Of a stretch of DNA of 64,000 nucleotides, positions 3,772-63,650 are shown in pieces. A program made the translations under genes and the position numbers. The notes under the pieces are model-generated. The model saw nothing but the letters and a program-made list of their open reading frames with translations. It made no database searches and had not been told where the DNA came from. The stretch comes from an uncultured Acidobacteriota bacterium (GTDB taxonomy: Bacteria; Acidobacteriota; Thermoanaerobaculia; Multivoradales; UBA5704), in assembly GCA_963700145.1 (NCBI GenBank), contig OY969474.1:4644916-4708915 (forward strand), read 5' to 3'. How positions within the stretch are numbered: the stretch's first letter is position 1; the number at the start of each line of letters is the position of its first letter.

Positions 3772-3955
3772 CCATCCGGGAGCGCGTGCCACCGCACGCG
3801 CGAGAGCGACGGAGTCAGCGGCAGACCATAGCAGATCGCCCGCAGACGCCCGGCACGTAGGCCGGGCGCTACGTAGCGGCGGGCCTACGTGCCCGCCGTG
3901 TTCGCGGCGGGCGCCTGCTGGCGCTCCGCCGCGGCTTTGGGGGAGACTCCGCGCC

Positions 3956-5129: not shown

Positions 5130-5566
5130 GGAGCCGGCCGGGGAGCCTTCCCCCGCGGCGCGGGCGACTTCCCGGAGCGTCCGGGAGCTTCCCCCGAGGC
5201 CGCGGAACAATGCCCGGACGCTCCGCGCAGAGTTCCCAACGGCTCGGAACAGTGCCCGGACGGCCCGGGAACTGTTCCCCACGACTTGGAACAACGCCCG
5301 GACGGCCCGGGCAGAGTTCCCAACGCCTCGGAACAATGCCCGGACGGTTCGGGAGCTGTTCCGGACGCTTCGGGAACAGTCCCCAAGGGCTTGGAACAAT
5401 GCCCGGACGCTCCGGGCATTGTTTCCAACGGTTTGGAACTCTTCCCGGTCCGTCCGGGCATTGTTCCCGGGGGCGGGGAACTCTTCCCGAACCGTCCGGG
5501 CATTGTTCCCGAGAGCTGGGAACTCTTCCCGGTCCGTCCGGGCATTGTTCCCGAGGGCTGGGAACT
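5130..5566. repeat. Array of about 10 imperfect palindromic units (about 34 bp, core GGAACARTGCCCGGACGGYCCGGGCAKWGTTCC). Orientation switches midway through the array.
   Basis: Recurrence of GGAACAATGCCCGGACG and its reverse complement CGTCCGGGCATTGTTCC every ~40 bp (units separated by ~8-10-bp linkers), seen directly in the sequence. The ORFs in this interval translate to repetitive low-complexity peptides and are not called. Confidence 0.8.
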
Positions 5567-5574
5567 CCTCCCGG

Positions 5575-6939
5575 GGATGTGTCCCGATTCTTGTGGAGAT
5601 TCGGCGTAACCCCCTGACTGTCGGGTTGACGTTAGCTCCTCACGCGGCCTGCGTCCAAATCGTGGCGAGGAAACGTTGCAGGTCTTGGTGGCCATTGACG
5701 CTGCGTAGGCGGATCTGGCCGCAGGCCACCAGTGCCCAGAGCAGGGTCAAGGCCGCCTCTTCGGTGGCGAAGCTGGCCTGGGTCTTGGTGCGGCGTCGAA
5801 ACTCGCGATGGAGGTTTTCCAGCGCGTTGGTCGAGCGTAGGGTCCTCCACAGCGAGCGGGGAAACTCGTAGAAGGTCAACAGCTCCTCTCCGGCCTCCTC
5901 GAGCGAGCGGGCGACAGCCGGACACAGGCGAGACCACTTGGCGAGGAAGGCCGCGTAGGCCTGATGGGCCGCCCCACCGTCGCGGGCCTCGACGATCGGG
6001 CGCCAGTCGCGCCGGAGCTCGCCGCGAGCATGGCGCGGGCAGTGCTCCAGCAGGTTTCGGAGCTTGTGCTGGGTGCAACGCTGCACGCGCACCCCCGGCC
6101 ACGCCGCCAGCGCCTTGCGCAAGCCAGCGTGGCCGTCGACGATGAGCAACTCGGGCGCCGCCAAGCCCCGCCGCTGCAGATCCTCGAGCAGCTCGCCCCA
6201 CAGCCGCGCCGCCTCGCTCGTGGCCAACCGTAACGCCACCAGGACCTTGCCGCCATCGGGGCGCACGCCCAGAGCGGCCAGCACCGGCACCGCCACCACC
6301 CGCCGGGCCAGCCGCACCTTGACGTGGAACCCGTCGAGAAACAGCAGCGCGTAACGCTCGCCCGCACAATCGCGCTCCCGCCAGGCCGCAAACCGCTCTT
6401 TGAGCCGCCCCACCACGCGCGAGGCCGCGCTCTTGGACAGGTGCTCTTCTCCCAGCAGCGGCGCCAGCGCCTTGCCGATCCGTCGGCTATTGGCCCCCGC
6501 CAGATAGCACGACAGGATCGCCGCGTCGATCTCCCGCACCCGCCGCGCGTAGCGCGGCACCAACGCGCTGGCGAACTCTTCCGTCGTGCCCTCCACTGTG
6601 GCCACCCGACCGCGCGGCACCCGCAGCGGCCGGGTCCCCGCCACCGTCGTCACCCGCCGTAGCGTGGCTCCGTTGCGGTAGCCGCGGCGCACCGCCGTCC
6701 GCTCGTAGGGCTGCGCACCCAGCGCCTCCTGAAGCTCCTGCTCTAGCACCAGCTCCACGGCCTCCAGAAGCCTCTGCTCGAGCAGCCGCCGGATGTCCTG
6801 GCGCAGCGGCACCACCTCCTGCTCTGACGTGCTAGCCTCCCACATGGCGTAACCCTCCTCCGCCGCCCACGCGACGGGATGTGCTTGACAGCTAGGAGGT
6901 TACGCCACTTTCTTTTTCCACAAGAATCGGGACGGATCC
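5575..6939 (-). mobile_element. IS256-family insertion sequence (about 1365 bp) with imperfect terminal inverted repeats and an 8-bp target-site duplication
   Basis: Terminal inverted repeats GGATGTGTCCCGATTCTTGTGG (left) and GGATCCGTCCCGATTCTTGTGG (right, reverse complement) match 20 of 22. Direct repeat CCTCCCGG at 5567-5574 and 6940-6947. IS256 characteristically makes 8-bp target duplications. Confidence 0.85.
5640..6845 (-). CDS. IS256-family (Mutator-like) transposase
   Basis: LFLDGFHVKVR and TNALENLHREFRRRTK motifs are IS256-family transposase signatures. About 400 aa. Confidence 0.9.
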   Translation of the reverse strand: MWEASTSEQEVVPLRQDIRRLLEQRLLEAVELVLEQELQEALGAQPYERTAVRRGYRNGATLRRVTTVAGTRPLRVPRGRVATVEGTTEEFASALVPRYARRVREIDAAILSCYLAGANSRRIGKALAPLLGEEHLSKSAASRVVGRLKERFAAWRERDCAGERYALLFLDGFHVKVRLARRVVAVPVLAALGVRPDGGKVLVALRLATSEAARLWGELLEDLQRRGLAAPELLIVDGHAGLRKALAAWPGVRVQRCTQHKLRNLLEHCPRHARGELRRDWRPIVEARDGGAAHQAYAAFLAKWSRLCPAVARSLEEAGEELLTFYEFPRSLWRTLRSTNALENLHREFRRRTKTQASFATEEAALTLLWALVACGQIRLRSVNGHQDLQRFLATIWTQAA

Positions 6940-6947
6940 CCTCCCGG

Positions 6948-7130
6948 TCCGTCCGGGCACTGTTGCTGAGGGCTGAGAACTCTGTCCGAACCGTCCGGGC
7001 AGAGTTTCCGGGCGCTTGGAGCTCCGACCCGACGCCGCGGGAGGAGTTTCTTGCGCCTCCCGACCCGACCCGGACGCTCCGGGAAGAACTCCCGGCGCCC
7101 CGAGCTGCCTCACTGGCTGCTCGAATGTGC
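6948..7130. repeat. Continuation of the palindromic repeat array on the far side of the IS insertion
   Basis: CCGTCCGGGCACTGTTGC and CCGTCCGGGCAGAGTTTCC units of the same family as 5130..5566. Confidence 0.7.
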
Positions 7131-9954: not shown

Positions 9955-11213
9955 GCCAACGCCCCGCGCCGCGCCGCGCGGTGGAGCAGGAAGCCGCCGA
10001 GCGCCAGGAGGGCGGCGCCGAGGCCGGCGAGGACCGCGATGTTGGGGAGGACGTCGCGCAGGGTGCCCGCCGACTCGATGAGCGTCCGGTACCCGGTCGT
10101 CCCCCAGTAGAAGGGCGACACCGGCGACACGGCGCGCACCGCCCGCGGCAGCCCCTCGAGGTTGACGAAGCTGCCGCCCGCCATCGCCAGGACGAGGTAG
10201 AGGATCGAGCCGATGGTGGCGCCGCGGCGCTCGTTGAGCGCCAGCCCGTAGATCGTCGCCGAGGTGCCGGTCACCGCCAGGACGAGCGCCAGGGAGAGCA
10301 GGAGGAAGCCCGCCGGGTCCACCCCCCGCCGCAGCACCACCGCCCCGACGGCCGCGAGCACGCCGAGCGCGATGAGCGCGAGGACCGCCGTGTAGAGCGC
10401 CTTGCCGAGCACCAGCGTGCCGCCGCCGATCGGCCCCGCGAGCTGCCGCCGCAGCGTGCCCGCCGTCGACTCGGCGATGATGTCGCGCATCGCCAGGTCG
10501 CCGACCAGGAAGAGCGCGTAGACCGAGATCCCGGGCAGGATGACGAGGAAGATCAGCGAGACCTCGGAGCCGGAGTCCTCGCCCGCCGGCTGCGGCTGGA
10601 GCGACGCGGTGTCGAAGGCGATGACCGGCGGCGAGAGGACGGCCGCGGCGCCCTCGAAGGCGCGGCGCACGGCGAGCGCGACGGCGACCGTCGTCTCCTC
10701 CGTGGGCGGCTCCGCGCCGGGCCGCGCCGAGGAGGCGATCCGCTCGAGCGGCCCGCGCAGGACGCGCGAGCCGGCGTCGAGGACGTCGGCCAGCACGCGC
10801 GCGAGCTGCTCGGCGATCTCCGGTAGGATCCCCTGTGCCGGGTTGCGGACCACGGCGAGTTGCACCGGTTTGCCGTCGAGGAGGTTTTGGGTGAAACCCT
10901 TCGGGATGCGGAGGAGGGCCGAGGCCTCGCCCTTCTCCATCCGCGCGGCGCCCTCGGTCCCCACGACCTCGACCTCGACCAGCTCGGCCAGCCGCTCCGA
11001 CTGCAGGGCGGAGAGCAGGGCGTCCGCCGCGATGCCGCCGTCGCGGTCCTCGACCAGCAGATGGGCTTGCGGCGTGCGGTCGCCCCGCGCGCCGAAGGAG
11101 AGGGCGATCAGGAACGCGAAGACCACCGGGAAGCTGAGCACGATGAGCAGCCCGAGCGGCGACCGGGCCTTGCGCCGCAGGTCCTTCCCGACCAGCAGCA
11201 GGAGGGTGCGCAT
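9951..11213 (-). CDS. ABC-2 type transporter permease (second subunit)
   Basis: Real start MRTLLLLVGKDLRRK overlaps the ATPase stop (TGATG). The track ORF 9951..14207 is an overextended frame. Hydrophobic C-terminal six-helix region. Confidence 0.75.
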   Translation of the reverse strand: MRTLLLLVGKDLRRKARSPLGLLIVLSFPVVFAFLIALSFGARGDRTPQAHLLVEDRDGGIAADALLSALQSERLAELVEVEVVGTEGAARMEKGEASALLRIPKGFTQNLLDGKPVQLAVVRNPAQGILPEIAEQLARVLADVLDAGSRVLRGPLERIASSARPGAEPPTEETTVAVALAVRRAFEGAAAVLSPPVIAFDTASLQPQPAGEDSGSEVSLIFLVILPGISVYALFLVGDLAMRDIIAESTAGTLRRQLAGPIGGGTLVLGKALYTAVLALIALGVLAAVGAVVLRRGVDPAGFLLLSLALVLAVTGTSATIYGLALNERRGATIGSILYLVLAMAGGSFVNLEGLPRAVRAVSPVSPFYWGTTGYRTLIESAGTLRDVLPNIAVLAGLGAALLALGGFLLHRAARRGALA

Positions 11214-25891: not shown

Positions 25892-26335
25892 CTACTGCTC
25901 GACGATGTCGGCGCGCAGGGTGCCGACGGCGGCGAAGAGCTCCTCGCGCTCCTTCTGCCCGACCTTGAACTTGTCGAGCGTCGCCGTCAGGTGCTTGACC
26001 GCGGTGTCCCAGTGGGCCGCCGAGATCTTCATCCCCGCGTGCGACGCCTTCATGCTCCGCCCCGTGTAGTAGCAGGGGCCGCCGCTCATCTCGCAGAGCT
26101 GCTCGACGACGAGCTGCCGGATCTTCTTGAGCGACTCGGTGCTGTGCCCAGCGAAGAACGGCCCGAGCTGCGGGTCCGCCGCCATCCGTCCGATGAAGTC
26201 GTCGGTCACGGCGGCGATGGCGTCGTAGCCGCCCAGGCGCTTGTAGAGCGACGCGTCGTCAGCCGCGGCGAGCGGCGCCGCGAGGGCGGCCGAGAGCAGC
26301 AATGCGGCGGCGATGAGAGCCTTGGTTCGGATCAT
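25892..26335 (-). CDS. Truncated (2/2) hemoglobin, group I, with signal peptide
   Basis: YKRLGGYDAIAAVTDDFIGRMAADPQLGPFF and the HAGMKIS heme-pocket region match trHbN. N-terminal signal peptide. Confidence 0.8.
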   Translation of the reverse strand: MIRTKALIAAALLLSAALAAPLAAADDASLYKRLGGYDAIAAVTDDFIGRMAADPQLGPFFAGHSTESLKKIRQLVVEQLCEMSGGPCYYTGRSMKASHAGMKISAAHWDTAVKHLTATLDKFKVGQKEREELFAAVGTLRADIVEQ

Positions 26336-26431
26336 GGTTCCCTCCCGAGAGAGCTCGACTGCAGTCCATTGGCTTCTACGCGCGGGCCGAGCGCCCGGAT
26401 GAGTCCGAGTAGCGGCCGAACCGACTCCGAA

Positions 26432-26705
26432 TCAGTCGACGTTGAACACCGGACGTTCGCAGGTTGGACCGGCCTGTAGCTCGCTCTGCGTGTATCGGCT
26501 GTCTTGGTACAGCCGAATGGGATAGCAGCCTGTACCGAGACCGAACTCGACGACGTAGTCGCCTGGAAGCAGGCTGGTCCGAAGAACGCCGCGTTCCTTC
26601 TGGACGAGGCTCCCTCCATCGTCACCAAGCCAGATGTCCACCGATTTGGAGTTGCCGGTGATCTCGAGCTCGAGGTACGTGCGGCTCTCGTAGACGTGGC
26701 TCATT
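26432..26705 (-). CDS. Small hypothetical protein (island gene 4)
   Basis: ORF beginning MSHVYESRTYLELEITG. Low-G+C island. No domain recognised. Confidence 0.35.
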
Positions 26706-26875
26706 GTGCCGACCGTAGGAGAGAGTGAACTATCTAAGCGTGGGCATGGTAGCACCGTGACCGCGACCCTCTGCCTCCGACGCGATGCTGGCCTGTCACT
26801 GCCGGCTCCGTGCCGCCCTAACGTTCACGCTTCACCGGCGGATGGCAACGCCAGCCGTCCGGCGGAAGCTGGGGG

Positions 26876-27778
26876 TTAAACGGCACCGCTTCTGGCCTCG
26901 AGTTCACGTCTCACCTCGCTACGGAACACCGGCAACCATTCAGTAATGAGCTGTTGGAAAGCCTCGTCTAGCTGGGGCTCTCGCTCAGGAACTATCGAGT
27001 TCATCCGAATCGCCAGTGCCAAACCTGCTATGTTGGCTGCCGCCTTGGCGACTGGTTCTGATGCGAAGAGGTGAATCTCCTGGTTGAGCTCACTCACGCG
27101 CCGACCCTGCAGCTGGAGATCTTCTTCTACGCGAGGGAGCATGAGCTGAGCAGCCGGTCCACCCTGCTTCATAACGATGACGCGATTCTTCGCTGCTTGG
27201 TGGGCTCTTAGAGCGGCATTGACAAAGTCGGCATAGACCTTCTGGTGGGTCACTCCGGCCATATCGATCGAAGGACTGACTGGAGCTAACGGCGTAGTGC
27301 CTAAAGGCGGTGCTTGAGCGAGAACTCCGCGAAGTGCGCTAAGAAGTTGCCGATAGTTCTCCTCCGAGTATGGATCACCGCGCAGGTCAAAGTAGACCTT
27401 TCCTCGAAGAAATGAGGGAGCCGCCTCTCTCCAGTCACCTGACCGAAGTAGAGGAACGAACTTCCTGTCGTTGCGGTCAGTCATCACTTCGGCCGTAATG
27501 ATATGCCCTTCGTAACCGACGCCACCGATGCGTCGATCTGACTTCTCTTGGTACTTAGGGGTGCAGATCATGAGGACGAAGTCGCTGTCTCGGATGGCAG
27601 TTTCAATAAACTGAGGCAGTTGATCACCGGGAGCAACCTTCCACTCGTCCAAGATCAGGTCGATGCCGTCACTGCGGAGACGGGCACCAAGTCTCTTGAC
27701 CCAATCCTTGTGCTCCTCGCTATCCCACGAGTACGAGATGAACGCCGTGGGTATCTGTTTAAGAAGTTCGCTTGTCAC
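26876..27778 (-). CDS. TIR-domain protein (N-terminal TIR plus a C-terminal domain of about 160 aa with unknown function)
   Basis: AFISYSWDSEEHKDWVKRLGARLRSDGIDLILDEWKVAPGDQLPQFIETAIRDSDFVLMICTPKYQEKS matches the bacterial TIR pattern (FISYS, D, L, G, D, PG, I, AI, S, S, Y). G+C visibly low. Confidence 0.65.
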   Translation of the reverse strand: MTSELLKQIPTAFISYSWDSEEHKDWVKRLGARLRSDGIDLILDEWKVAPGDQLPQFIETAIRDSDFVLMICTPKYQEKSDRRIGGVGYEGHIITAEVMTDRNDRKFVPLLRSGDWREAAPSFLRGKVYFDLRGDPYSEENYRQLLSALRGVLAQAPPLGTTPLAPVSPSIDMAGVTHQKVYADFVNAALRAHQAAKNRVIVMKQGGPAAQLMLPRVEEDLQLQGRRVSELNQEIHLFASEPVAKAAANIAGLALAIRMNSIVPEREPQLDEAFQQLITEWLPVFRSEVRRELEARSGAV

Positions 27779-27861
27779 GGTCGATTCTTGTGCCGTTTAA
27801 CGGCGTATGAGTTCCGCTGCAACGAGGTTAGGTGACCCGCCGCGACTGTCGAGCAAAGGGT

Positions 27862-28347
27862 TCAGGTCGTTCGCTGGTAGTCGTCCAGCAGCTGAGTGAT
27901 GTCTCGCTGTGTGACGGTGAGATGATGAAGCAGGGAGTCGACTGGCGAAGGGCTGACGTGACTGCTTGAGCCAGTGGCGATGTGTGTGTGCAGGTAGTCG
28001 AGTTTAGCGTTGATGTGGTCAAGCTGGTAGCGCTGCCAGTCGAACCTGTCGAACAGACCCTCGTCGGCGAACAGTTCGCGACCGCTAAGCAGGACTTGTG
28101 CTGGGGTTGTCGTATCTAGGCGGAAGTTTGGAATCACAACCGGGGAACGCTGCAGGTAGTCGAGGCATTGCGCAATGCGATCGAGATTGAAGCGAAACGC
28201 CTTGAGGAGATTGGCGCGGAGCTGATGAGCTCGCGCTACGCGCTCCCGTTTCCATTGCTGCCGTGCCCAGAGCACGCCGAACACTGTTCCAGCGAAGGCG
28301 CTTAGGAAGGCGAAGAGGAGATTCCAGAGCAGCTGTTCCGTTGTCAT
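27862..28347 (-). CDS. Single-pass membrane protein (island gene 2)
   Basis: MTTEQLLWNLLFAFLSAFAGTVFGVLWARQQW is an N-terminal transmembrane helix, followed by a helical soluble region. An alternative start at 28407 is possible. Confidence 0.45.
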   Translation of the reverse strand: MTTEQLLWNLLFAFLSAFAGTVFGVLWARQQWKRERVARAHQLRANLLKAFRFNLDRIAQCLDYLQRSPVVIPNFRLDTTTPAQVLLSGRELFADEGLFDRFDWQRYQLDHINAKLDYLHTHIATGSSSHVSPSPVDSLLHHLTVTQRDITQLLDDYQRTT

Positions 28348-28431
28348 GAATGCTATCCGGGTCCTAACGCTACTGGGCTTCAGCGACGGCGGAGCCGCTC
28401 GCTGCAAGCCCTTGGTTAGGCTGCTGATTGA

Positions 28432-28935
28432 TCACCGAGCCTTTCCAAGCGTGCTTAACGCAACGATGGCTTCCCTAATGTTGGCGGCGACAATATTAGA
28501 TTGATCGAGGCGCCACCTGTTGTAGTGTGCACGAAGGACATCGACGAGCCTGGCTGCCTGCTGAATATCGCGCTGTGCTGGACCGAGATCGACCTCGTCA
28601 GGGATGCCTAGGCTCCTCATGAAGCCGATGACTCGCTCAAGATGAGCGACCAGTTGGCGGTGAGGACGTGTGAGTCGACCTTCTCGGAATTGCTTTGCCT
28701 TGTCCGTGTCCTCGAACCATGTTGGGTCCCACATCAAGGAGTCATTCGCAATCTTGGTCACATGAGCCACCACGGGCTCACCAATGAGCGAGTCGAATTC
28801 ACGATCATTGCGCTCCATGACCTCGCGATATGTCCGGACAATCTCCTGAAGGCCGGAGAGCGAAGTGAGGGACTGCATGTCCTGTGTGAGTACCAACGGG
28901 GATAGGAAGGCAGGTCGCGATGCATTATCTGTCAT
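28432..28935 (-). CDS. Hypothetical protein (island gene 1)
   Basis: 167-aa ORF in the low-G+C island. AT-rich putative promoter upstream (28940-29100). Confidence 0.4.
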   Translation of the reverse strand: MTDNASRPAFLSPLVLTQDMQSLTSLSGLQEIVRTYREVMERNDREFDSLIGEPVVAHVTKIANDSLMWDPTWFEDTDKAKQFREGRLTRPHRQLVAHLERVIGFMRSLGIPDEVDLGPAQRDIQQAARLVDVLRAHYNRWRLDQSNIVAANIREAIVALSTLGKAR

Positions 28936-29147
28936 GGCATTTCATCCTTGTTCTAGAATACTGAATCCTGCTCGCATGGTCAGCAGCCTAACCTCTGCTT
29001 ATACGGATTGGCCGGCTGTGGGTGGCGAGACGGGAGCCTCAGCCGCATCTCACGCCTGGTTATGAGTTAGGAGAGTGTAGCAGAGACTGCGTGCGAACAG
29101 GTGCGACGGACGTGTCGTCTATGCGGCGCTGGACGGGGTCAGAGTTT

Positions 29148-29190
29148 CGAGACCCCCGCCCAGATCCTTCGCTACGCTCAGGATGACGGC
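29148..29190. repeat. REP-like palindromic repeat family, half copy (CCCCGCCCAGATCCTTCGCTACGCTCAGGATGAC)
   Basis: The same family recurs at 30903, 49385, 56211 and 59672. Confidence 0.7.
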
Positions 29191-29221
29191 GCTGCGAGCT
29201 TCGGTCGGCTGGGCGCTACGT

Positions 29222-30889
29222 CTACGTCCCCGACTCGCGGAACACCAACCGCTGGTTCCCGGCGACGTTGGCGCGTTGCTGGACCTTCCCTGACGGCCAG
29301 CGCACGACCACCCGATCGGCCTTCGCGGCCCGCCCCAACCCGAAGACAGGCTCGACCTGCGACTGCGAGAGGTAGCTGCTGCCGGTGCGCACCAGCCAGC
29401 GCTGGGTGGCGCCGCCGGTGGTGACCTCGACGACCGTCCCCAGGCCGTCGCGGTTGCTCTTCGAGCCCTCGAGCCCGATCTTGAGCCAGCGGCCCTGCCC
29501 GCCGCCGGCGTTGGCGAAGACCTGGGCCGGGCCGCCGTTGTTGGTCAGCACCAGGTCGAGGTCGCCGTCGTTGTCGAGGTCGCCGTAGGCGGCGCCGCGG
29601 GCGACGCGCGGCTTGGCGAGGTCGCCGCCGGCGGTCGCCGTCACCTCTTCGTAGCGGCCGGCGCCGGCGTTGCGGAAGAGCTGCGTCGGCTGGCGGAACT
29701 TGACCTTGGTCTGCACGTTCTCGACCTCGGGGTCGAGGTGGCCGTTGCCGAGCAGGATGTCGAGCCAGCCGTCGAGGTCGTAGTCGAAGAAGAAGGCGGC
29801 GAAGGCGAGGGTCAGGAGGGTGCGGCGGCCGATCTGCGAGGCCGGCGCCACGTCGACGAAGAGCTGATTGCCCTCGTTGCGGTAGAGCGCCACCATCTCG
29901 TTGGCGAAGTTGCCGATCACCAGGCTGTGGCGGCCGCTGCGGTCGTAGTCGGCGGCGTCGATGCCCATGCCGCCGCGCGCCACGCCGGTCTCGGAGAAGG
30001 CCATGCCGGAGGCCACGCCCACCTCCTCGAACGTGCCGTTGCCGCGGTTGCGGTAGAGGAGGTTGGGCTGGGTGTCGTTGGCGACCGCGAGGTCGGGCCA
30101 GCCGTCCCCATCGAGGTCGAGCACCGCCACGCCGAGCGACTTGGCGGAGGGCTTGGAGATCCCCGCCTTCTTGGTCGCGTCCTCGAGCTTCAAGCCCCCC
30201 TTGTTGCGGTAGAAGCGCGGCGAGGCGCCGGGGTAGGACTCCGGCGTGCAGTAGGACTTGCTCTTGCCGTCGAGGGTGCAGAAGAGGTCGGTCTCCGGCG
30301 TCCAGGTGACGTAGCGGGTGGCGAGGACGTCGAGCCGCCCGTCCTTGTCGGCGTCGAGGAGAGCAACCGAGGCGCCGAACTCGTAGTCGCGCGACAGGCC
30401 GGCCGCCGCGGAGACGTCCGCGAACTTCCCGCCGTCGTTGCGCAGCAGGTAGTCCTGCCCGACGCAGGAGAGGTAGAGGTCGGCGTCGCCGTCGTTGTCG
30501 AGGTCGCCGGCGGCGCCGCCCAGGCAGTAGGCGGCGATGCCGAGACCGCTCTTCGCCGTCGCGTTGGCGAACTTGAGGCCCCCTTGGTTGGTGTAGAGCT
30601 CCTGCGTCGTCGCCTTCCCGGGCTTGCCCGGGAAGTTGCGGCCGTTGAGAAACAGCACGTCGAGCCGGTCGTCGCCGTTGGCGTCGAAGAGGACGACGCC
30701 CGGCCCCATCGTCTCCGGCAGCCACTTCTTGCCGAAGGCGCCGGTGTTGTGGGTGAACTTGATGCCGCTCGCGGCGGTGACGTCGGCGAATCGCGGGCCG
30801 GCGGGCCTCGCCGGCTGCCCCTGCCGAGCGAAGAGAGGCACGGCGAGCAAGAGACAGGTAACGAGGTACAACAAGGGTCGTCTGGTCAT
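29222..30889 (-). CDS. CRTAC1-family protein (FG-GAP/VCBS repeats plus ASPIC/UnbV C-terminal domain); secreted
   Basis: Signal peptide. Repeated DxDGDGxxDL motifs. C-terminal RWLKIGLEG...GLGTVVEV...SGSSYLSQSQVEPVFGLG matches ASPIC/UnbV. Confidence 0.8.
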   Translation of the reverse strand: MTRRPLLYLVTCLLLAVPLFARQGQPARPAGPRFADVTAASGIKFTHNTGAFGKKWLPETMGPGVVLFDANGDDRLDVLFLNGRNFPGKPGKATTQELYTNQGGLKFANATAKSGLGIAAYCLGGAAGDLDNDGDADLYLSCVGQDYLLRNDGGKFADVSAAAGLSRDYEFGASVALLDADKDGRLDVLATRYVTWTPETDLFCTLDGKSKSYCTPESYPGASPRFYRNKGGLKLEDATKKAGISKPSAKSLGVAVLDLDGDGWPDLAVANDTQPNLLYRNRGNGTFEEVGVASGMAFSETGVARGGMGIDAADYDRSGRHSLVIGNFANEMVALYRNEGNQLFVDVAPASQIGRRTLLTLAFAAFFFDYDLDGWLDILLGNGHLDPEVENVQTKVKFRQPTQLFRNAGAGRYEEVTATAGGDLAKPRVARGAAYGDLDNDGDLDLVLTNNGGPAQVFANAGGGQGRWLKIGLEGSKSNRDGLGTVVEVTTGGATQRWLVRTGSSYLSQSQVEPVFGLGRAAKADRVVVRWPSGKVQQRANVAGNQRLVFRESGT

Positions 30890-47431: not shown

Positions 47432-48523
47432 ATGGCGAACGAGCTCGAAGACCGCGTCTGGCAGGCGCTCAAGGGAGTGAAGTACCCGGGCATGACGCGG
47501 GACATCGTCTCCTTCGGCTTCGTGCAGCGGGTGGAGGCGCGGGGCGGCGAGGTCGAGGTGGACCTCCAGCTCGCGACGCAGAAGCCCGAGGCCGCCGAGC
47601 AGGTGCGCGGCGAGGTGGAGCGGGCGGTGCGCGCGCTCCCCGGCGTCAGCGGCGCGCGCGTGGGCTTGAACGTCACGCGCCACCCGCCGCGCGAGGAGGC
47701 GGCGCAGCGGGCGATCGCGCAGGACCCGCAGCTCATCCCTGAGGTGCGCTACGTGGTGGCGGTGGCGAGCGGCAAGGGCGGGGTGGGGAAATCGACCGTC
47801 GCCGCCAACCTGGCGGTGGCGCTCTCCAAGCTCGGCCACCGCGTCGGCCTCCTCGACGCCGACATCCACGGCCCCTCGATGCCGATGATGTTCGGCATCA
47901 ACGAGCGGCCGTTCGTCGAGGGCAACCGCATCCGCCCGTTCGACAAGCACGGCGTGACGGTCATGTCGCTCGGCTTCATCCTCGACGTGGACACGCCGGT
48001 CATCTGGCGCGGCCCGATGGTCATGCGCGCCATCGAGCAGATGCTCGGCGACGTGATGTGGGGCGAGCTCGACTACCTGGTGATCGACCTGCCCCCGGGC
48101 ACCGGCGACGCGCAGCTTACGGTCACCCAGAAGATCCCGCTCTCCGGCGCGGTGATCGTCACCACACCGCAGGACGTGGCGCTGATCGACGCCCGCAAGG
48201 GGCTGGCGATGTTCAAGAAGGTCAACGTGCCGGTGGTGGGGATCGTCGAGAACATGGCGACCTTCGTCTGCCCGCACTGCGGCCAGTCGACCGACATCTT
48301 CAAGTCCGGCGGCGGCCGGCGCACCGCCGAGCTCCTCGGCACCGCTTTCCTCGGCAGCATCCCGCTCGACCCCAAGATCGTGGCGGGCGGCGACGCCGGC
48401 GTGCCGATCGTCGTCGCCGAGCCTGACGGCCCGCACGCCGCCGCCTTCCGCGACGTCGCGAGCGCGGTCGTCGCCGAGGTGGCGCGCCAGGAGGAGCTGC
48501 GGCCGAAGCTGTCCATCGTGTGA
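47432..48523 (+). CDS. apbC: Fe-S cluster carrier ATPase Mrp/ApbC (NBP35 family)
   Basis: SGKGGVGKST deviant Walker A, CPHCG cluster-binding Cys pair, and N-terminal DUF59-like domain. Confidence 0.9.
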   Translation: MANELEDRVWQALKGVKYPGMTRDIVSFGFVQRVEARGGEVEVDLQLATQKPEAAEQVRGEVERAVRALPGVSGARVGLNVTRHPPREEAAQRAIAQDPQLIPEVRYVVAVASGKGGVGKSTVAANLAVALSKLGHRVGLLDADIHGPSMPMMFGINERPFVEGNRIRPFDKHGVTVMSLGFILDVDTPVIWRGPMVMRAIEQMLGDVMWGELDYLVIDLPPGTGDAQLTVTQKIPLSGAVIVTTPQDVALIDARKGLAMFKKVNVPVVGIVENMATFVCPHCGQSTDIFKSGGGRRTAELLGTAFLGSIPLDPKIVAGGDAGVPIVVAEPDGPHAAAFRDVASAVVAEVARQEELRPKLSIV

Positions 48524-48700
48524 CCCGGAAGCCGTTCATGGACGCGGCTACGGGAAACGGCGCGCGAAAGCCGGACGGCCGGAGGAGGTCGCGCGCCTCC
48601 GCTTCGCTTCGCGCCGATTCGGCAACCGCCTGCCGTGGGATTGCCAGCGCTCGCTCAGAGGTTCCCTCCGCCGCGTCCATGAACGGCTTCCTCCGGCGGG
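48524..48700. repeat. Intergenic element with 22-bp perfect terminal inverted repeats (CCGGAAGCCGTTCATGGACGCGGC ... GCCGCGTCCATGAACGGCTTCC) flanking a GC-hairpin-containing core of about 120 nt
   Basis: Seen directly in the sequence. Its core shares a TTGCCAGCGCTYGC block with the element at 49457..49627. Confidence 0.6.
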
Positions 48701-48707
48701 AGTAAAG

Positions 48708-49382
48708 GTGCCCACCGCCCTCATCGCCGACGCCCACCTCGGAGGGCCGGGCGGCCCGCCCGGGCCGCTGGTCGAGCAGCTCGATTCCCTCCAGCCGGAG
48801 CGCTGCGACCGCTTGGTCCTTCTCGGCGACCTCTTCCAGGCCTGGGTCGGCTCGCGCAAGTTCGAGACCGCCGGCATCGCCGAGGTCGTCGCCGCCCTCC
48901 GCCGCGTCCGCGCCCGCGGCATCCCGGTCCACTACATCGAAGGCAACCGCGACTTCTTCCTCGCGAGCAGCCCGTACGCCGACGCCTTCGACACCATCGG
49001 CTCCGAGGTCGCCTTCGAGAGCGCCGGCCGCCGCTACCTAGCCGTCCACGGCGACGGCCTCAACGACCGCGACCTCCAGTACCTAGCCTGGCGCGCCCTC
49101 TCCAAGAGCCGCCTCTCCCGCCTCCTCGTCCTCCGCACCCCCCGCCGCTTCGCCCAACGCGTCGTCGAGAAGACCGAGCGGAAGCTCTCGAAGACCAACT
49201 TCAAGCACAAGGCCGCTCTCCCCGAAGCCGCCATCCGCACCTACGCCGAGCGCCGCCTCTCCGAAGGCCACGACACTCTGCTCCTGGGGCACTTCCACGA
49301 GCCGCAGACTTGGCAGGTGAAAGGTGGTGAGGTTCGCCTTCTGGATGCGTGGTTTCACTCGCACCAAATCGAGTGGGTGTAG
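48708..49382 (+). CDS. Calcineurin-like metallophosphoesterase, LpxH-like (UDP-2,3-diacylglucosamine hydrolase family)
   Basis: ADAHLGG...LVLLGDLFQAWVG...GNRDFF...HGD motifs match the LpxH-type phosphoesterase motifs. Confidence 0.65.
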   Translation: MPTALIADAHLGGPGGPPGPLVEQLDSLQPERCDRLVLLGDLFQAWVGSRKFETAGIAEVVAALRRVRARGIPVHYIEGNRDFFLASSPYADAFDTIGSEVAFESAGRRYLAVHGDGLNDRDLQYLAWRALSKSRLSRLLVLRTPRRFAQRVVEKTERKLSKTNFKHKAALPEAAIRTYAERRLSEGHDTLLLGHFHEPQTWQVKGGEVRLLDAWFHSHQIEWV

Positions 49383-49384
49383 GT

Positions 49385-49425
49385 TCCCCCGCCCAGATCC
49401 TTCGCTTCGCTCAGGATGACAGGGC
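49385..49425. repeat. REP-like palindromic repeat, half copy
   Basis: TCCCCCGCCCAGATCCTTCGCTTCGCTCAGGATGACAGG. Confidence 0.7.
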
Positions 49426-49456
49426 ACCAGCAGCGCCGTAGGCCACGGACGGTGCA

Positions 49457-49627
49457 GGCGGCCGGCGGCGGGGGACCCTGGCGGGGAGCTCTCCGCAAGC
49501 GCTGGCAACTCCCTTCGCAGTCGCCAAGCGATCCGACGCGCAGCGGAGCGCAGGCGCGCGCCTCAGATCAAGAAGTCCACTAACGCGCGCGCCGGTCCCC
49601 GCCAGGGTCCCCCGCCGCCGGCCGCCC
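49457..49627. repeat. Intergenic element with about 30-bp terminal inverted repeats (GCGGCCGGCGGCGGGGGACCCTGGCGGGGAGC ... GGTCCCCGCCAGGGTCCCCCGCCGCCGGCCGC). Its core is related, in inverted orientation, to that of the 48524 element.
   Basis: Seen directly in the sequence. Shared core block GGGAGTTGCCAGCGCTTGC versus GGGATTGCCAGCGCTCGC, and an internal GGCGCGCGC...GCGCGCGCC hairpin. Confidence 0.6.
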
Positions 49628-49654
49628 GGCAACACCCTTCGCTACAATCAGCCG

Positions 49655-50416
49655 ATGCGGGTCACGATGCTGGGAAGCGGCACTTCGACCGGCGTCCCCG
49701 TCATCGGCTGCACCTGCTCCGTCTGCACCTCCGACAACCCCCGCAACAAACGCTGGCGCGCCGGCCTCCGCCTAGAGCTCGAGCACGGCGTCGCCCTCGT
49801 CGACACGCCCACAGACTTCCGCGAGCAGGCCCTCCGCTACGGCGTCAACCGCGTCGACGCCGTCCTCTTCACCCACGCCCACGCCGACCACGTCTTCGGC
49901 CTCGACGACCTCCGAATCTTCAACTTCCGCCAGCGCACCGCCATCCGCTGCTACGCCTCCGCCCCCACCCTCGCCATGCTCCGCCGCTACTTCGCCTACG
50001 CCTTCGAGGACGGCCAGGAGGGGGGCGGCAAGCCCGTCCTCGACCTCGTCGAAGTGCGCGAGCCCTTCGACCTCCTCGGGCGGCGCATCGTGCCCGTCCC
50101 CGTCTGGCACGGCGAGCTCGAGGTCTACGGCTACCGGCTCGGCGACTTCGCCTACGTCACCGACTGCAGCCGCATCCCGGAAGAGAGCTTCCGGCTTCTC
50201 GAAGGCGTGCGCACCCTCGTCCTCGGCGCCCTGCGCTACCGCCCGCACCCCACCCACTTCACCGTCGACGAGGCGGCCGCGGCGGCGGCGCGCATCGGCG
50301 CCGAGCGCACCTTCCTGACCCACCTGGCCCACGACATCGACCACGACGCGCCCGCCGTGCCGCTGCCGGCCGGCGTGCACTTCGGTTATGACGGCCTCAC
50401 CCTCGAGGTCGACTGA
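49655..50416 (+). CDS. MBL-fold metallo-hydrolase (PhnP/GPMB-like)
   Basis: FTHAHADH motif and downstream His/Asp ligands. Confidence 0.75.
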   Translation: MRVTMLGSGTSTGVPVIGCTCSVCTSDNPRNKRWRAGLRLELEHGVALVDTPTDFREQALRYGVNRVDAVLFTHAHADHVFGLDDLRIFNFRQRTAIRCYASAPTLAMLRRYFAYAFEDGQEGGGKPVLDLVEVREPFDLLGRRIVPVPVWHGELEVYGYRLGDFAYVTDCSRIPEESFRLLEGVRTLVLGALRYRPHPTHFTVDEAAAAAARIGAERTFLTHLAHDIDHDAPAVPLPAGVHFGYDGLTLEVD

Positions 50417-51716
50417 GCCTTTCGCAGTCCCCGCCGGCCGGGTCGCCCGCGGCCGGCTGGCCGTCCCGCCGTCCAAGAGCCTCACCAACCGCTACCTGAA
50501 CCTGGCGCTCCTCGCCGGCGCGTCGGCGACGATCGAGCGGCCGTTGGAGGCCGAGGACACGGCCGCCTTCCTCGCGGCGCTGGCGGTTTGCGGATTCCGG
50601 GTAGAGAAAGAGAAGGACGAGTGGCGGCTCACCCCGGGACCGCTGCCTGCCGCCGCGGCGATCGACTGCGGCGCCTCCGGGACGATGCTCCGGTTCCTCA
50701 CCGCGGCGCTGGCCGCACTGCCCGGCAACTGGCGCCTCGACGGCGTGCCGCGCCTGCGCGAGCGGCCGGTCGGGCCGCTGGTCGATTCCCTCCAGCGGCT
50801 GGGTGCCCGCATCCGCTACCTGGGACAGGAAGGGTATGCGCCACTCGGGATCGAGGGAGGGACGCTGGGTGGAGGAGAGACGATCCTCGACGCGAGCGCC
50901 TCCAGCCAGTTCCTCTCCGCGCTGCTCATGGCGGCGCTCCGGGCGCCAGGGCTCGTGAGCGTGGAGGTCGCGGCCCTCACCTCCGAGCCCTACCTGCATC
51001 TGACGCTGGCCGCAATCGCGCAGTTCGGCGGCCGCGTGGAGCGGCCCTCCAGCCACGCTTTGGTCGTCCACCCGTCGACGCTGCGCGCCGGCCGCCTGCG
51101 CGTCGAAGGGGACTTCTCCGCCGCCTGCTACCCGGCGGCGGCGGCGGCGCTCACCGGCGGCGAGGTCGTCCTCGCCGGCCTGCCGCGCGGCTCGGCCCAG
51201 GGGGACCGCGGCTTCTTCGACCTCCTGTCGCGGATGGGCGCGGCGGTCGAGTGGCGCGGCGAGGAGGAGGTGAGCGTGCGCGGCACTCCCGGCGGCGCCC
51301 TCGTCGCCGCCGACGCCGACCTCGCCGCGATGCCCGACCAGGTGCCGACGGTCGCTGCGCTCGCCCCCTTCGCCCGCGGCACGACGCGCATCCGCAACGT
51401 GCCGCACTTGCGCCTCAAGGAGAGCGACCGCCTGCGCGCCATGGCCGGCCAGCTCGCGGCGGCGGGCGTGCCGGTCGAGGAGCGCGCGGACGGCCTGACG
51501 ATCGCGGGGGTCTGGGCCGACCGCTTGCCGGTCGACCTCCCCTCGGCGCCGGTGACGATCGACCCGCACGGCGACCACCGGATCGCCATGAGCATGGCGC
51601 TCGTCGGGTTCCGCCGGCCGGGGATCGCGATCGCCGATCCGCACGTCGTCGCCAAGTCCTATCCCGGCTTCTGGCGCGACCTCACCGCGCTGCTCGTTGC
51701 CGCTCAAGGCAACTGA
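50388..51716 (+). CDS. aroA: 3-phosphoshikimate 1-carboxyvinyltransferase (EPSP synthase)
   Basis: PPSKSLTNRYLNLALLAG, LRLKESDRLRAMA and DHRIAMSMAL motifs. Confidence 0.85.
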   Translation: MTASPSRSTEPFAVPAGRVARGRLAVPPSKSLTNRYLNLALLAGASATIERPLEAEDTAAFLAALAVCGFRVEKEKDEWRLTPGPLPAAAAIDCGASGTMLRFLTAALAALPGNWRLDGVPRLRERPVGPLVDSLQRLGARIRYLGQEGYAPLGIEGGTLGGGETILDASASSQFLSALLMAALRAPGLVSVEVAALTSEPYLHLTLAAIAQFGGRVERPSSHALVVHPSTLRAGRLRVEGDFSAACYPAAAAALTGGEVVLAGLPRGSAQGDRGFFDLLSRMGAAVEWRGEEEVSVRGTPGGALVAADADLAAMPDQVPTVAALAPFARGTTRIRNVPHLRLKESDRLRAMAGQLAAAGVPVEERADGLTIAGVWADRLPVDLPSAPVTIDPHGDHRIAMSMALVGFRRPGIAIADPHVVAKSYPGFWRDLTALLVAAQGN

Positions 51717-58728: not shown

Positions 58729-59674
58729 CCGCGGCGGTCAAGTGGTCCCAGCCGGCGGGGGGCAGCGTCCGCTGCCTCCCGCCGGTCGCCAGCCGCACAC
58801 CGCGCCCCGCGGTGATCGTTCCGATCCTCCGACAGCCAAATGCCGGCGGCGGCCCCGCGCGAGCGGGCAGCGTGAAGAGCAGCACGTAGTCCTCGCCGCC
58901 GCCGAGCGCCAGCTCCAGCGGCTCGCGCCCGAGCCGCGCGCAGAGCGCGGCGAAGCCGCGCGGCAGCGGCAGCCGTTCCGCCTCGACGACCGCTCCCACG
59001 CCGCTCGCCGCGCAGAGGCGGTGGAGGTCGCGCGCCAGGCCGTCCGAGACGTCGATCGCCGCCCCCGCCGCGCCGCGCCGCTCGCCGAGCCAGCGGCCGA
59101 GCGCGAGCTGCGGCGCCGGCGCGAGGTGCCGCCGCACCGCCCGCCGTGCGGCGGCGTCCCTGGCCGCCACGCCCGCGGCGAGGAGCAGCCGCCCGGCGGC
59201 CGACTCGCCGAGCGTCCCCCCGACCCACAGCGCCTGCCCCGGGCGGGCGCCGCCGCGGCGCAGGAACCGCCGCCCTTTCGGCAGCCGTCCGAGGAGCGTC
59301 AGCGTGGCGACCAGCCCGGCCGGCGACGCGGCGAGGTCGCCGCCCGCCAGGCGCACGCCGTGGCGGCGGCAGGCGGCGGCGAGCGCCGCGAGGAAGCGGC
59401 GGTGCGGGAAGCCCGCCGGCGCGTTGAGCGCCAGCACCGCGTAGGCCGGATCGGCACCGCACGCGGCGAGGTCGGAGAGGTTGACGGCGAGGAGGCGGCG
59501 CGCCACCACCGCCGGCTCAGTCCCGGCAAGGAAGTGGACCCCTTCGATCTGGCTGTCGACGGTGGCGACGAAGCGGCCCGGCAGAAGGGCGGCGTCGTCG
59601 CCGATCAGCGGCTCGTCACCGAGGCGGCCGCGGAGCCACCGGAGCAGGCGCTCCTCGCTGCGGTCTTCCCCCAC
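58721..59674 (-). CDS. thiL: Thiamine-monophosphate kinase
   Basis: AIR-synthase-related fold. IGDDAALL and VDSQIEGVHF N-terminal motifs and DVSDGLARDL. Confidence 0.8.
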   Translation of the reverse strand: MGEDRSEERLLRWLRGRLGDEPLIGDDAALLPGRFVATVDSQIEGVHFLAGTEPAVVARRLLAVNLSDLAACGADPAYAVLALNAPAGFPHRRFLAALAAACRRHGVRLAGGDLAASPAGLVATLTLLGRLPKGRRFLRRGGARPGQALWVGGTLGESAAGRLLLAAGVAARDAAARRAVRRHLAPAPQLALGRWLGERRGAAGAAIDVSDGLARDLHRLCAASGVGAVVEAERLPLPRGFAALCARLGREPLELALGGGEDYVLLFTLPARAGPPPAFGCRRIGTITAGRGVRLATGGRQRTLPPAGWDHLTAAAT

Positions 59675-59790
59675 CCAGATCCTTCGCTGCGCTCAGGATG
59701 ACGAGGAAGGGTTCATGCCGGGCACAACCCAACGACGTCATCCTGAGCGCAGCGTAGCGCAGCGAAGGATCTGGGGGCGGGCAGGCTCAT
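59672..59790. repeat. REP-like palindromic repeat, full dyad copy, spanning the thiL-lon intergenic region
   Basis: CAGATCCTTCGCTGCGCTCAGGATGACG ... CGTCATCCTGAGCGCAGCGTAGCGCAGCGAAGGATCTGGGGGCGGGC. Confidence 0.75.
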
Positions 59791-62729: not shown

Positions 62730-63212
62730 CTAGCCCTCCTCGCGGGTGGGGACCTCTTCGCGCGGCTGCACCAGGCCGCGCAGCACGTCCATGAAGGCGT
62801 CGATGTCCTCGAAGCGGCGGTAGACCGAGGCGAAGCGCACGTAGGCCACCTGGTCGAGCTCGCGCAGCCGCTCCATGACGAAGGAGCCGATGTCGCGGGT
62901 CGAGATCTCCCGGTCCTCGCGCTCGTGGAGCATGTTCTCGGCCTCTTCCACGATCTCCTCCAGCCGCCGCTGCGCCACCGGCCGCTTCTCGCAGGCCTTG
63001 AGCAGCCCCGACATCAGCTTCTTCCTGCTGAACTCCTCGCGGCTGCCGTCGTGCTTGACCACAAGATACGGGATGTCTTCGATCTGCTCGTACGAGGTGA
63101 AGCGGCGGCCGCAGGAGAGGCACTCGCGCCGCCGGCGGATGGTGACCCCGTCGCGGCTCTCCCGGGAGTCCACCACCCGGTCCCGGTTCTCGGAGCAGAA
63201 GGGGCACCGCAT
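62730..63212 (-). CDS. nrdR: Transcriptional repressor NrdR
   Basis: MRCPFCS...C..C zinc ribbon and ATP-cone domain. Confidence 0.9.
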   Translation of the reverse strand: MRCPFCSENRDRVVDSRESRDGVTIRRRRECLSCGRRFTSYEQIEDIPYLVVKHDGSREEFSRKKLMSGLLKACEKRPVAQRRLEEIVEEAENMLHEREDREISTRDIGSFVMERLRELDQVAYVRFASVYRRFEDIDAFMDVLRGLVQPREEVPTREEG

Positions 63213-63239: not shown

Positions 63240-63650
63240 CGGGGAAGCCGGCCCGGAGCGTTTTGGTGCATCCGCGCGGCCTCGGATGCACGGGAAGACG
63301 GCTGGACCAAGCGCCCCGGAGACGTTTATGCACCATTTTTCGCCGCCGATGCACCACCGGGAGTGCTTGGACGGCCTCCCCCGCGCCTCGGGAGCCCGTC
63401 CAGGCCCCTCCAGCGCCCTCCCTCAAGGCAAAATGGTGCAAAGAAGGCGAAAAATGGTGCACCCCGGCCGCGGCGGCGACCGCCCCCGCGCCGGGGGTGC
63501 ACCACCACGGCGTTTTCTGGTGCATTTCGGCCGCCCGGACGCTTGCTCACGGCGCCGTACCGCTTGATCCAGCACCGCGGGCGGTCGTTCCGGCCAGCCG
63601 ATGGTGCATCCGACGCGTCGGATGGTGCATCGAAGTCCCCGGGGGCGCTT
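63240..63650. promoter_or_regulatory. Cluster of ten TGGTGCA/TGCACCA heptamers, in five pairs with about 21-bp centre-to-centre spacing, upstream of nrdR
   Basis: Examples: GGTGCATCCG-N10-CGGATGCAC; ATGCACCA-N13-ATGCACCA; ATGGTGCA-N13-ATGGTGCA; GGTGCACCA-N13-TGGTGCA; ATGGTGCATCCGACGCGTCGGATGGTGCAT. A/T tracts lie between the paired sites. Confidence 0.5.

Follow-up and report, generated by a model that had tools for sequence, protein, structure and literature searches.

E1 and E2, two copies of a palindromic repeat family with a conserved core and copy-specific perfect stems in Thermoanaerobaculia: probable hairpin-dependent mobile elements

Two intergenic elements, E1 and E2, stand before and after the lpxH-like gene in a 64,000-nucleotide stretch of contig OY969474.1 (the window; assembly GCA_963700145.1, an uncultured acidobacterium of the Thermoanaerobaculia). 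They are old, diverged copies, of subfamilies B and A respectively, of a noncoding palindromic family that probably forms a nonautonomous, hairpin-dependent, selfish-DNA-like mobile element resembling MITEs (miniature transposable elements bounded by inverted repeats) and REPINs. Comparison of related loci showed that close relatives differ, at fixed positions, by gain and loss of the unit with its arms. The first-pass annotation of this DNA, made from the letters alone, had proposed a miniature transposable element as one candidate. That proposal holds in the main, as the family is multicopy, noncoding, and intergenic, occurs in both orientations, and has presence/absence polymorphism and decaying copies; however, conserved terminal repeats and target-site duplications are missing.

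A conserved core within copy-specific stems

Reading of the sequence from 48300 to 49900 bore out the earlier placement of E1 in the spacer between mrp and the lpxH-like gene, and of E2 in the spacer between the lpxH-like gene and an MBL-fold gene. The parts of the two elements are listed here; L numbers denote loci or contigs outside the window.

48524-48707, plus strand: E1, a complete copy of subfamily B, which defines the "E1 orientation" and occupies the entire mrp-lpxH-like spacer; 135 bits at 48527-48691 with covariance model R1 (described below)
48527-48548, plus strand: left outer-stem arm of E1, GGAAGCCGTTCATGGACGCGGC, the perfect complement of 48670-48691
48559-48597, plus strand: GC-clamped hairpin P2 of E1, made of GGCGCGCG (48559-48566), a 23-24-nt loop, and CGCGCGCC (48590-48597)
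48597-48661, plus strand: conserved core blocks of E1, CTCCGCTTCGCTTCGCGCC ... GGGATTGCCAGCGCTCGCTCAGAGG (alignments A1, A4, and A5)
48670-48691, plus strand: right outer-stem arm of E1, GCCGCGTCCATGAACGGCTTCC, which pairs with the left arm
48692-48707, plus strand: 3' tail of E1, TCCGGCGGGAGTAAAG, with a GGGAG Shine-Dalgarno-like motif directly ahead of the GTG start of the lpxH-like gene
49441-49626, minus strand: E2, a complete copy of subfamily A, with the flank outside the arms included; 164 bits with model R1 at 49458-49625, minus strand
49441-49456, plus strand: conserved flank GGCCACGGACGGTGCA, a small CACC..GGTG hairpin outside the E2 arm, common to subfamily A copies at unrelated loci
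49457-49487, plus strand: outer-stem arm of E2, GGCGGCCGGCGGCGGGGGACCCTGGCGGGGA, 31 nt, 100% complementary to 49596-49626
49488-49595, minus strand: core of E2, including P2 and the AGCGCTGGCAA block
49553-49562 with 49585-49593: P2 hairpin of E2, GGCGCGCGCC with GCGCGCGCC
49596-49626, plus strand: outer-stem arm of E2, TCCCCGCCAGGGTCCCCCGCCGCCGGCCGCC, with a T:A-to-C:G compensatory pair relative to L152; the sole survivor in L157/L158

A repeat finder confirmed that the terminal inverted repeats are perfect within each element, over 22 nt in E1 (extending to 48 nt at 77%) and over 31 nt in E2, and the GC hairpin that had been noticed in each was recovered as P2. The two arms had also been called unrelated between elements. 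Indeed, arms of paralogues were no closer to one another than shuffled arms; within a subfamily, however, they were faintly alignable, and the inner pairs GGGRA / TYCCC were shared. A common core in opposite orientations had been claimed as well, and the plus strand of E1 aligned with the minus strand of E2 throughout the interior, the repeat finder giving a 51-nt pair (71%) and a 29-nt pair (79%). The cores, about 110 nt each, were 63% identical globally, and the 11-mer TTGCCAGCGCT was exact in both. This likeness went beyond chance, given the recurrence of the core and its architecture in four further contigs of other genomes and folds far better than those of dinucleotide shuffles (-103.9 kcal/mol and z -4.9 for E1, -130.3 kcal/mol and z -9.9 for E2).

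Genome contigs were scanned with an 18-nt core pattern followed by BLAST filtering, which gave 2 true members among the 119 stretches listed, and metagenome contigs with a more specific two-block pattern, which gave 2 among 32 stretches; family counts are lower bounds. The 18-nt pattern led to two contigs of Thermoanaerobaculia metagenome-assembled genomes (MAGs), namely, L050, where one copy is complete and another is truncated at the contig end, and L116, with one copy. The two-block pattern led to metagenome contigs L143, with one copy, and L147, with two. The tally is thus at least nine copies or fragments from six independent contigs, seven of them besides E1 and E2 and all of those in Thermoanaerobaculia MAGs or metagenome contigs; the contigs that bear a name are all Thermoanaerobaculia MAGs. 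A covariance model (CM R1) built from nine copies recovered all nine at 76 to 164 bits, with no further match in 144 kb of related sequence, and within the window the core motif occurred at E1 and E2 only. No family match was obtained by blastn against plasmids and phages or in two DNA-pattern scans of viral contigs, nor did a six-frame pseudo-protein of the core, aimed at spurious open reading frames (ORFs) over other copies, find any match. Among the searches made, the family was seen only in Thermoanaerobaculia.

In the E1 orientation (alignments A4 and A5), a copy runs from one arm into P2, made of GGCGCGCGC, a loop of 20 to 25 nt, and GCGCGCGCC, and then through CTCCGCTYCGCTGCGCGCCGGATCG, a variable hairpin, and GGGAGTTGCCAGCGCTTGC(GG/TC)AGAGG to the other arm. 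The P2 loop is less GC-rich and in most copies keeps ..TTGTGGACT.C..GATCTGAGG. The conserved core measures about 105 to 120 nt, with a second, imperfect hairpin around GCGC..TTGCCAGCGC. The outer stem (P1) is GC-rich, 15 to 31 bp long, free in sequence, and perfectly paired in intact copies, the left arm of L147a being degenerate, and the whole unit comes to about 165 to 200 bp. Subfamily A comprises E2, L152, L050a, L116, L147a, and L050b and has a P3 helix, TCCGC/GCGGA, of which L050a carries the compensated version TTTGC/GCAAA; outside the arm, where sequence was available, stands a 16-nt flank, GGYCACC.N.GGTGCM. Subfamily B comprises E1, L143, and L147b and has GCTCAGAGG in place of the P3 helix.

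In subfamily A, the unit reaches past the arms. The E2-type flank motif also adjoins L050a, L116, L147a, L152, and L156 and is absent after other copies of the neighboring CTCAGGATGAC repeat; since subfamily A copies share it, the unit exceeds the repeat-bounded span. The CTCAGGATGAC repeat itself was considered as a part of E2 and rejected, because the sequence downstream of its five other copies differs. The tail of E1 accompanies the remnant of E1 in L156 (TTCGGCGGGCGTGAAG) and is missing at the empty sites of L152 and L157, and we would therefore assign it provisionally to the element.

Covariation on the aligned copies, a check suggested by the first-pass annotation, was strong in P1. Pair counting and RNAalifold on the paralogues showed that 25 of the 28 P1 pairs had changed on both sides, and P1 cells were paired at 91%, compared to 38 to 54% when the partners were slid by 1 to 3 columns (0 of 500 shuffles reached the observed value). 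G.U pairs were essentially absent from the approximately 220 P1 cells of intact copies. P2 was paired in 96% of cells across nine copies, with three covarying pairs, and P3 showed some covariation, the inner helices resting on few sequences. Cores of paralogues were 62 to 81% identical, while their arms were 35 to 69% identical, compared to 38 to 63% for shuffled arms. The arms of L050b and L147a, by contrast, were identical at 27 of 28 positions and stand in different flanks. Copies consisting of arms only were not found in about 190 kb of related DNA.

The orthologous E2 copies bear on how the pairing is kept. L152 has its E2 at 10794-10960. Between it and the window copy, the interior differs by 7 substitutions and 1 indel in 108 positions, and the arms by 2 substitutions in 62 positions, which together form one compensated pair (T:A versus C:G); L157 marks G as ancestral in the right arm of E2 at this pair. 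By our own calculation, the second of two hits in 62 positions would complement its partner by chance in about 0.5 to 1% of cases. The compensated pair thus indicates that pairing was kept perfect after insertion, which could reflect selection or intra-strand template switching. The latter turns quasipalindromes into perfect ones, according to PMC7202029. The two orthologs are a clear natural case of a long DNA palindrome undergoing compensated evolution or templated correction.

Presence, absence, and decay at orthologous sites

Both elements lie in a co-directional string of four plus-strand genes:

47432-48523, plus strand: mrp, for a Mrp/NUBPL-type ATPase, the 5' neighbor of E1
48708-49382, plus strand: lpxH-like gene, for a metallophosphoesterase labeled UDP-2,3-diacylglucosamine hydrolase by sources
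49655-50416, plus strand: gene for an MBL-fold protein, 3' of E2
50388-51716, plus strand: aroA, for EPSP synthase

The nearest named homologs of the window LpxH-like protein are from Thermoanaerobaculia MAGs, and the mrp-lpxH-MBL-aroA loci of relatives were gathered through such homologs. The percentages are LpxH-like amino acid identities to the window.

Window, 100%: full E1 at the E1 site; full E2 at the E2 site
L152, 95%: E1 absent, 10-nt spacer; full E2
L156, 86%: stump of E1; left flank, left arm, and core of E2, the contig stopping inside P2
L157/L158, 85%: E1 absent, genes abutting; last P2 bases and right arm of E2 only
L153, 81%: E1 site without an E-family copy, holding another repeat; E2 site empty, 21 nt
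L155, 78%: E1 site not comparable (mrp and lpxH-like gene about 5 kb apart); E2 site empty, 9 nt

As E1 and E2 thus come and go among close relatives, both are insertions and not conserved leaders. The empty sites (L152, L153, L155, and L157) are short and without a palindrome, which indicates that the arms arrived with the element; a copying of the arms from the target site was considered and rejected, the arms being unlike the empty sites. The mrp-lpxH-like spacer, 184 nt long in the window, amounts to 10 nt in L152 and, in L157, to a single nucleotide, and E1 breaks the translational coupling of the two genes. In L156, GGAAGCCGT is joined to CCATGAACGGCTTCC, followed by a tail of the window type. 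This stump retains 9 nt from the start of the left arm and 15 nt from the end of the right arm and equals E1 minus a single internal deletion of 141 nt at a CGT microhomology. At the 3' end of mrp, the window groups with L156 (GTGTGA) and L152 with L157 (GTCTAG), and on this ground we read the distribution of E1 as probably reflecting a local genealogy unlike the LpxH-like ranking. The -10-like hexamers downstream of three copies were rejected as a part of the element because the empty L153 site already has GCTAAACT.

Elsewhere, the copy in L116 lies between divergently oriented genes, L050a is 5' of a carboxyltransferase gene, L050b begins 8 nt past the glyA stop codon, and L143 is upstream of a minus-strand gene. 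The element thus lands in any type of intergenic region in either orientation, travels with its arms, and decays by internal deletion. Pairs in inverted orientation recur, 760 nt apart in the window, 54 nt apart in L147, and 3.3 kb apart in L050. Contigs L050, L143, and L156 end inside or at an element, which fits a repeat or GC-rich hairpin that breaks short-read assemblies; recognition of the family should help annotation and assembly of MAGs.

At about 945-1020 of L050, just left of L050a, the subfamily A flank and the first 17 nt or so of the arm are tandemly duplicated (GTCACCGACGGTGCCCGGGCCATTCGGGGGCGCC, then GTCACCGACGGTGCCCGGGCCGTTCGGGGGGG...). Probably it is what remains of another copy after deletion, and it hints that copies insert beside one another. 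A second repeat, CCCCCGCCCAGATCCTTCGCTKCGCTCAGGATGAC, stands solo just left of E2 at 49386-49420 and recurs at 29167, 30977, 56277, 59682 (+), and 59737 (-), its 21-nt core having six copies in the window against 0 expected and being more abundant than E1/E2. An inverted pair of it forms a palindromic element of about 120 bp at 59665-59784, and it also occurs at about 910-945 of L050, beside L050a, and at about 9960-9995 of L153, in the mrp-lpxH spacer. Its downstream sequences differ, and it is therefore a separate family from E1/E2. The small hairpin repeat CGCCCGGCACGTAGGCCGGGCG, at 3841-3904 of the window, has a copy at about 10985-11010 of L152, between E2 and a -10-like CTACAAT upstream of the MBL gene, that is missing at the corresponding spot of the window. 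It adds a third family to the small mobile hairpins of these genomes.

Nature of the element

We propose that the element is mobilized in trans, with a folded hairpin, probably single-stranded, as the intermediate. RAYT proteins act on REPINs, and the TnpA of IS200/IS605 acts on subterminal hairpins by structure. A putative enzyme of the E family would likewise read the conserved core or its structure, not the termini, which would explain the missing conserved terminal repeats and target duplications. If only lineages with a paired stem propagate, arms would drift through compensated changes and the core would remain recognizable, and after insertion the stem might be kept perfect by selection or by quasipalindrome correction. 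As a likely by-product, each copy would be co-transcribed within the mrp-lpxH-MBL-aroA string and form a perfect RNA duplex of 22 to 31 bp that could serve as a processing site or 3'-end barrier, by analogy to Correia and REP elements.

Several observations weigh against a mobile element of this kind. No transposase, RAYT, or other partner gene was found among the window ORFs scanned against Pfam, which were most but not all of them, and the only insertion sequence of the window (IS256 family, 5573-6941; terminal inverted repeat GGGGATGTGTCCCGATTCTTGTGGA) has unrelated ends. No conserved terminus is visible among the copies. No direct repeats flank E1, E2, L050a, L116, or L143, a comparison of few junctions that include the E2 site with its several nested insertions; as a target duplication, the sole candidate is a loose CCGG next to E1. 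The window has two copies in 64 kb and 35 kb of the relatives at 78 to 81% has none, and the specific pattern gave just two true metagenome loci, so that the family may be small. Finally, the E2 copies of the window and L152 diverge by 5.3%, compared to 15.2% at four-fold degenerate sites (121/794 in four flanking genes; binomial p about 1e-4), and such slow divergence would fit host-level constraint better than purely selfish DNA.

Divergence from the surviving E2 core of L156 amounted to 8 substitutions and 5 gap columns in 78, with a four-fold rate of 26%, which hints at constraint. However, the truncated remnant of the right arm in L157 was equally slow (4/42, compared to a four-fold rate of 27%). 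As that remnant is presumably functionless, the slow rate cannot be counted in favor of a function; it may stem from a deletion of recent date, from conversion by other copies, or from local gene flow.

The first-pass annotation could not place the elements in a known RNA family, and a search of the window and four other loci agreed. Rfam 15 gave no match anywhere in the window at the gathering threshold and, at E <= 10, only nonsensical plant and animal microRNA models at 18 to 19 bits; in L050, L116, L143, and L147, nothing was found at the copies. Apart from the element, positions 5627-5798 (minus strand) of L116 gave a subthreshold match to Ysr251 (42 bits versus a gathering threshold of 100; E 4.5e-8), which is probably spurious or reflects a protein-coding region. 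A simple scan of 48300-49800 found no sigma-70-like promoter or intrinsic terminator. A conserved small peptide was considered and rejected, because indels shift the frames between copies and leave no common reading frame.

A free-standing family of structured noncoding RNA genes, incidentally mobile or duplicated, in which the three-way-junction core is functional and the long stem is a processing or closing helix, seems to us quite unlikely. Such genes would account for the covariation, strong in P1 and present to some extent in P2 and P3, for the conserved sequence of the P2 loop, for the very stable folds, and for an E2 slower than synonymous sites. The strand in the E1 orientation also folds better in 5 of 7 copies, by 6 to 16 kcal/mol, and in 7 of 8 copies it keeps one inner G.U pair. 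However, that strand is G-rich in E2, and the better fold can follow from G excess alone. The virtual lack of G.U pairs in P1 looks like complementarity at the level of DNA. Besides having no Rfam match, copies lack promoter-like or terminator-like signals, take inconsistent orientations to neighboring transcription, and are deleted or truncated in close relatives, the truncated remnant evolving as slowly as the intact copy. On the strength of a stem without wobble pairs, the independence of orientation, and the pattern of decay, we favor a hairpin of DNA, or of single-stranded DNA, over a dedicated RNA gene. The suggestion in the first-pass annotation of a riboswitch-like leader fared worst. 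The elements are intergenic, lie upstream of genes, and have a stable conserved fold, but that they serve the lpxH-like and MBL-fold genes as riboswitches, or as cis-regulatory leaders of another type, is extremely improbable, since E1 and E2 are opposed within one co-directional string and orthologous positions are not conserved, the E2 site being empty at 78 to 81% identity and the E1 site at 95%. This inconsistent orientation and presence/absence rule such a leader out; relatives of the element, moreover, adjoin unrelated genes, lie 3' of genes as well, and in L116 stand between divergent ones, and no Rfam model fits.

An operon structural element maintained by the host at its locus, such as an mRNA processing or stability site or a transcriptional insulator, not a selfish one, would suit the compensated stem change and the rate three-fold below that of four-fold sites between window and L152. 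The tail of E1 supplies the Shine-Dalgarno-like motif of the lpxH-like gene, and Correia elements (PMC2649163) demonstrate that such effects occur. We nevertheless regard this explanation as improbable, as the element is missing from the same operon at 78 to 81%, lost or truncated at 85 to 86%, and, for E1, missing at 95%, and has its other copies in unrelated contexts; it also describes a possible consequence and not an origin. A nested insertion, in which only the core of about 110 nt is mobile and targets the loops of preexisting hairpin repeats, so that the "arms" are halves of the target, is very improbable. A core conserved between copies whose arms differ would be expected from it, these genomes are rich in small hairpin repeats that come and go, and L156 has a short hairpin of E1 arm sequence without a core. 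However, the L156 stump is E1 with one deletion junction at the CGT microhomology, no palindrome exists at the empty L152, L153, L155, and L157 sites, and no arm-only copies were seen in about 190 kb. Nested insertion would further need an inserted piece starting with TCATGG that is complementary to a resident CCATGA (1 in 4096 by chance), and two unrelated loci have a core with identical arms.

A structure-defined mobile hairpin of an undescribed kind is a tentative and rather unlikely possibility, in which the conserved three-way-junction core is read by machinery or host and the stem is needed as a perfect duplex and actively kept so. This is allowed by the compensated E2 pair, the stem without G.U pairs, and resident copies about 3 times slower than synonymous sites. 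It might take the form either of a new class of hairpin-dependent (HUH-type or other) nonautonomous transposons with an enzyme of their own or of a mobile structured module of RNA or single-stranded DNA with a host-level function.

Returning to the nonautonomous mobile element that we favor, its likeness to known repeat systems is partial. The ERIC (IRU) sequences of enterobacteria are imperfect palindromes of about 127 bp in transcribed intergenic regions, in either orientation, that are present or absent between related species and for which no transposase is known. In contrast to the E family, with its perfect, copy-specific stems, ERIC is conserved over its full length, including the ends. 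PATEs derived from IS200/IS605 offer a single-strand transposition recognized by structure, with no terminal repeats or duplications, that would explain the missing MITE hallmarks of the E family; however, their two hairpins are subterminal and a long terminal stem is missing, whereas the E family has one GC hairpin and a small flank hairpin in or beside a long stem. The few junctions of the E family disclosed no conserved target tetranucleotide. The Correia elements of Neisseria (CREE/NEMIS) are about 100 to 160 bp long, have inverted repeats around a conserved core, and are intergenic and often co-transcribed. Their repeats (26 bp) are conserved in sequence across copies, a TA target is duplicated around them, and they contain an IHF site as well as promoter elements. 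The E family differs in its variable arms, in GC-rich flanks without a TA duplication, and in its phylum, and has no sequence similarity to them; the P2 loop of E2, ATCAAGAAGTCC, does not fit the IHF consensus WATCAANNNNTTR, nor is it conserved as such. PMC2649163 describes an RNA duplex from Correia repeats that has effects on neighboring genes and to which RNase III binds or which it cleaves. Classical bacterial MITEs resemble the E family in being small, noncoding, nonautonomous, intergenic, and insertion polymorphic, with inverted repeats at their ends (reviewed in PMC10969869 and PMC2229807), but the terminal repeats of the E family are not conserved between copies and lack a target-site duplication. 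With termini not conserved and no target duplication seen, the family is neither a classical MITE nor a Correia element.

REPINs are mobile hairpins in which compensatory changes are common (PMC3116915). Like them, the E family consists of short noncoding intergenic units that fold into a long hairpin with compensatory changes and lack classical terminal repeats or target duplications, that sometimes cluster, and that leave solo remnants of decayed copies. However, the ends of a REPIN (the REP 16-mers) are its most conserved part and the spacer is variable, whereas the E family has variable ends and a conserved interior, and for this reason it is not a REPIN family. The unit is also longer (165 to 200 nt, compared to about 100 nt), its core is no simple doublet, and its apparent copy number is low. 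REP palindromes carry a GTAG or CGTC tetranucleotide tag at one end (PMC3733652). GTAG occurs at 49437-49440, directly before the flank hairpin of E2, and a few bases upstream in L156; its place is taken by GAAG in L152 and by different bases in L050a and L116.

With a conserved core inside a stem that is perfectly paired yet free in sequence, the E family inverts the plan of MITEs and REPINs, and a dedicated enzyme, if one exists, recognizes structure and an internal site. Thermoanaerobaculia are abundant, mostly uncultured Acidobacteriota of soil and sediment whose small mobile DNA is essentially uncharted. In the window, the E family and at least three other families of small palindromic repeats reshape the spacers within operons.

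Other features of the window

The window has a G+C content of about 72%. A tandem array of palindromic units with a period of about 42 nt (GGAACAATGCCCGGACG..CCGGGCATTGTTCC type; about nine units) at 5135-5575 and 6942-7084 looks like a REP/BIME-like cluster and is split by the insertion sequence mentioned above. The latter, at 5573-6941 inside the array, is a complete IS256-family element with terminal inverted repeats of 25 nt, GGGGATGTGTCCCGATTCTTGTGGA / TCCACAAGAATCGGGACGGATCCCC, and, at 5640-6845, a minus-strand gene for a Mutator-family transposase (Pfam E 1e-86). Homologs of this transposase were all on collapsed contigs of 1.3 to 2 kb, the close ones (96% and 91%) on metagenome contigs of 1.3 to 1.5 kb.

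An island of low G+C at 26000-30000 (60 to 63%, compared to about 72%) contains a gene for a TIR/SEFIR-domain protein at 26876-27778 on the minus strand and several ORFs without a Pfam match, and may be a horizontally acquired defense island. Lastly, an inverted repeat of 28 nt at 86%, TGCACCATTTTTCGCCGCCGATGCACCA / TGGTGCAAAGAAGGCGAAAAATGGTGCA, with 77 nt between its arms, lies at 63329-63461 and is unusually AT-rich for this genome. It lies just past the start-codon end of a minus-strand nrdR-like gene (62730-63212) and may be an operator or regulatory region.

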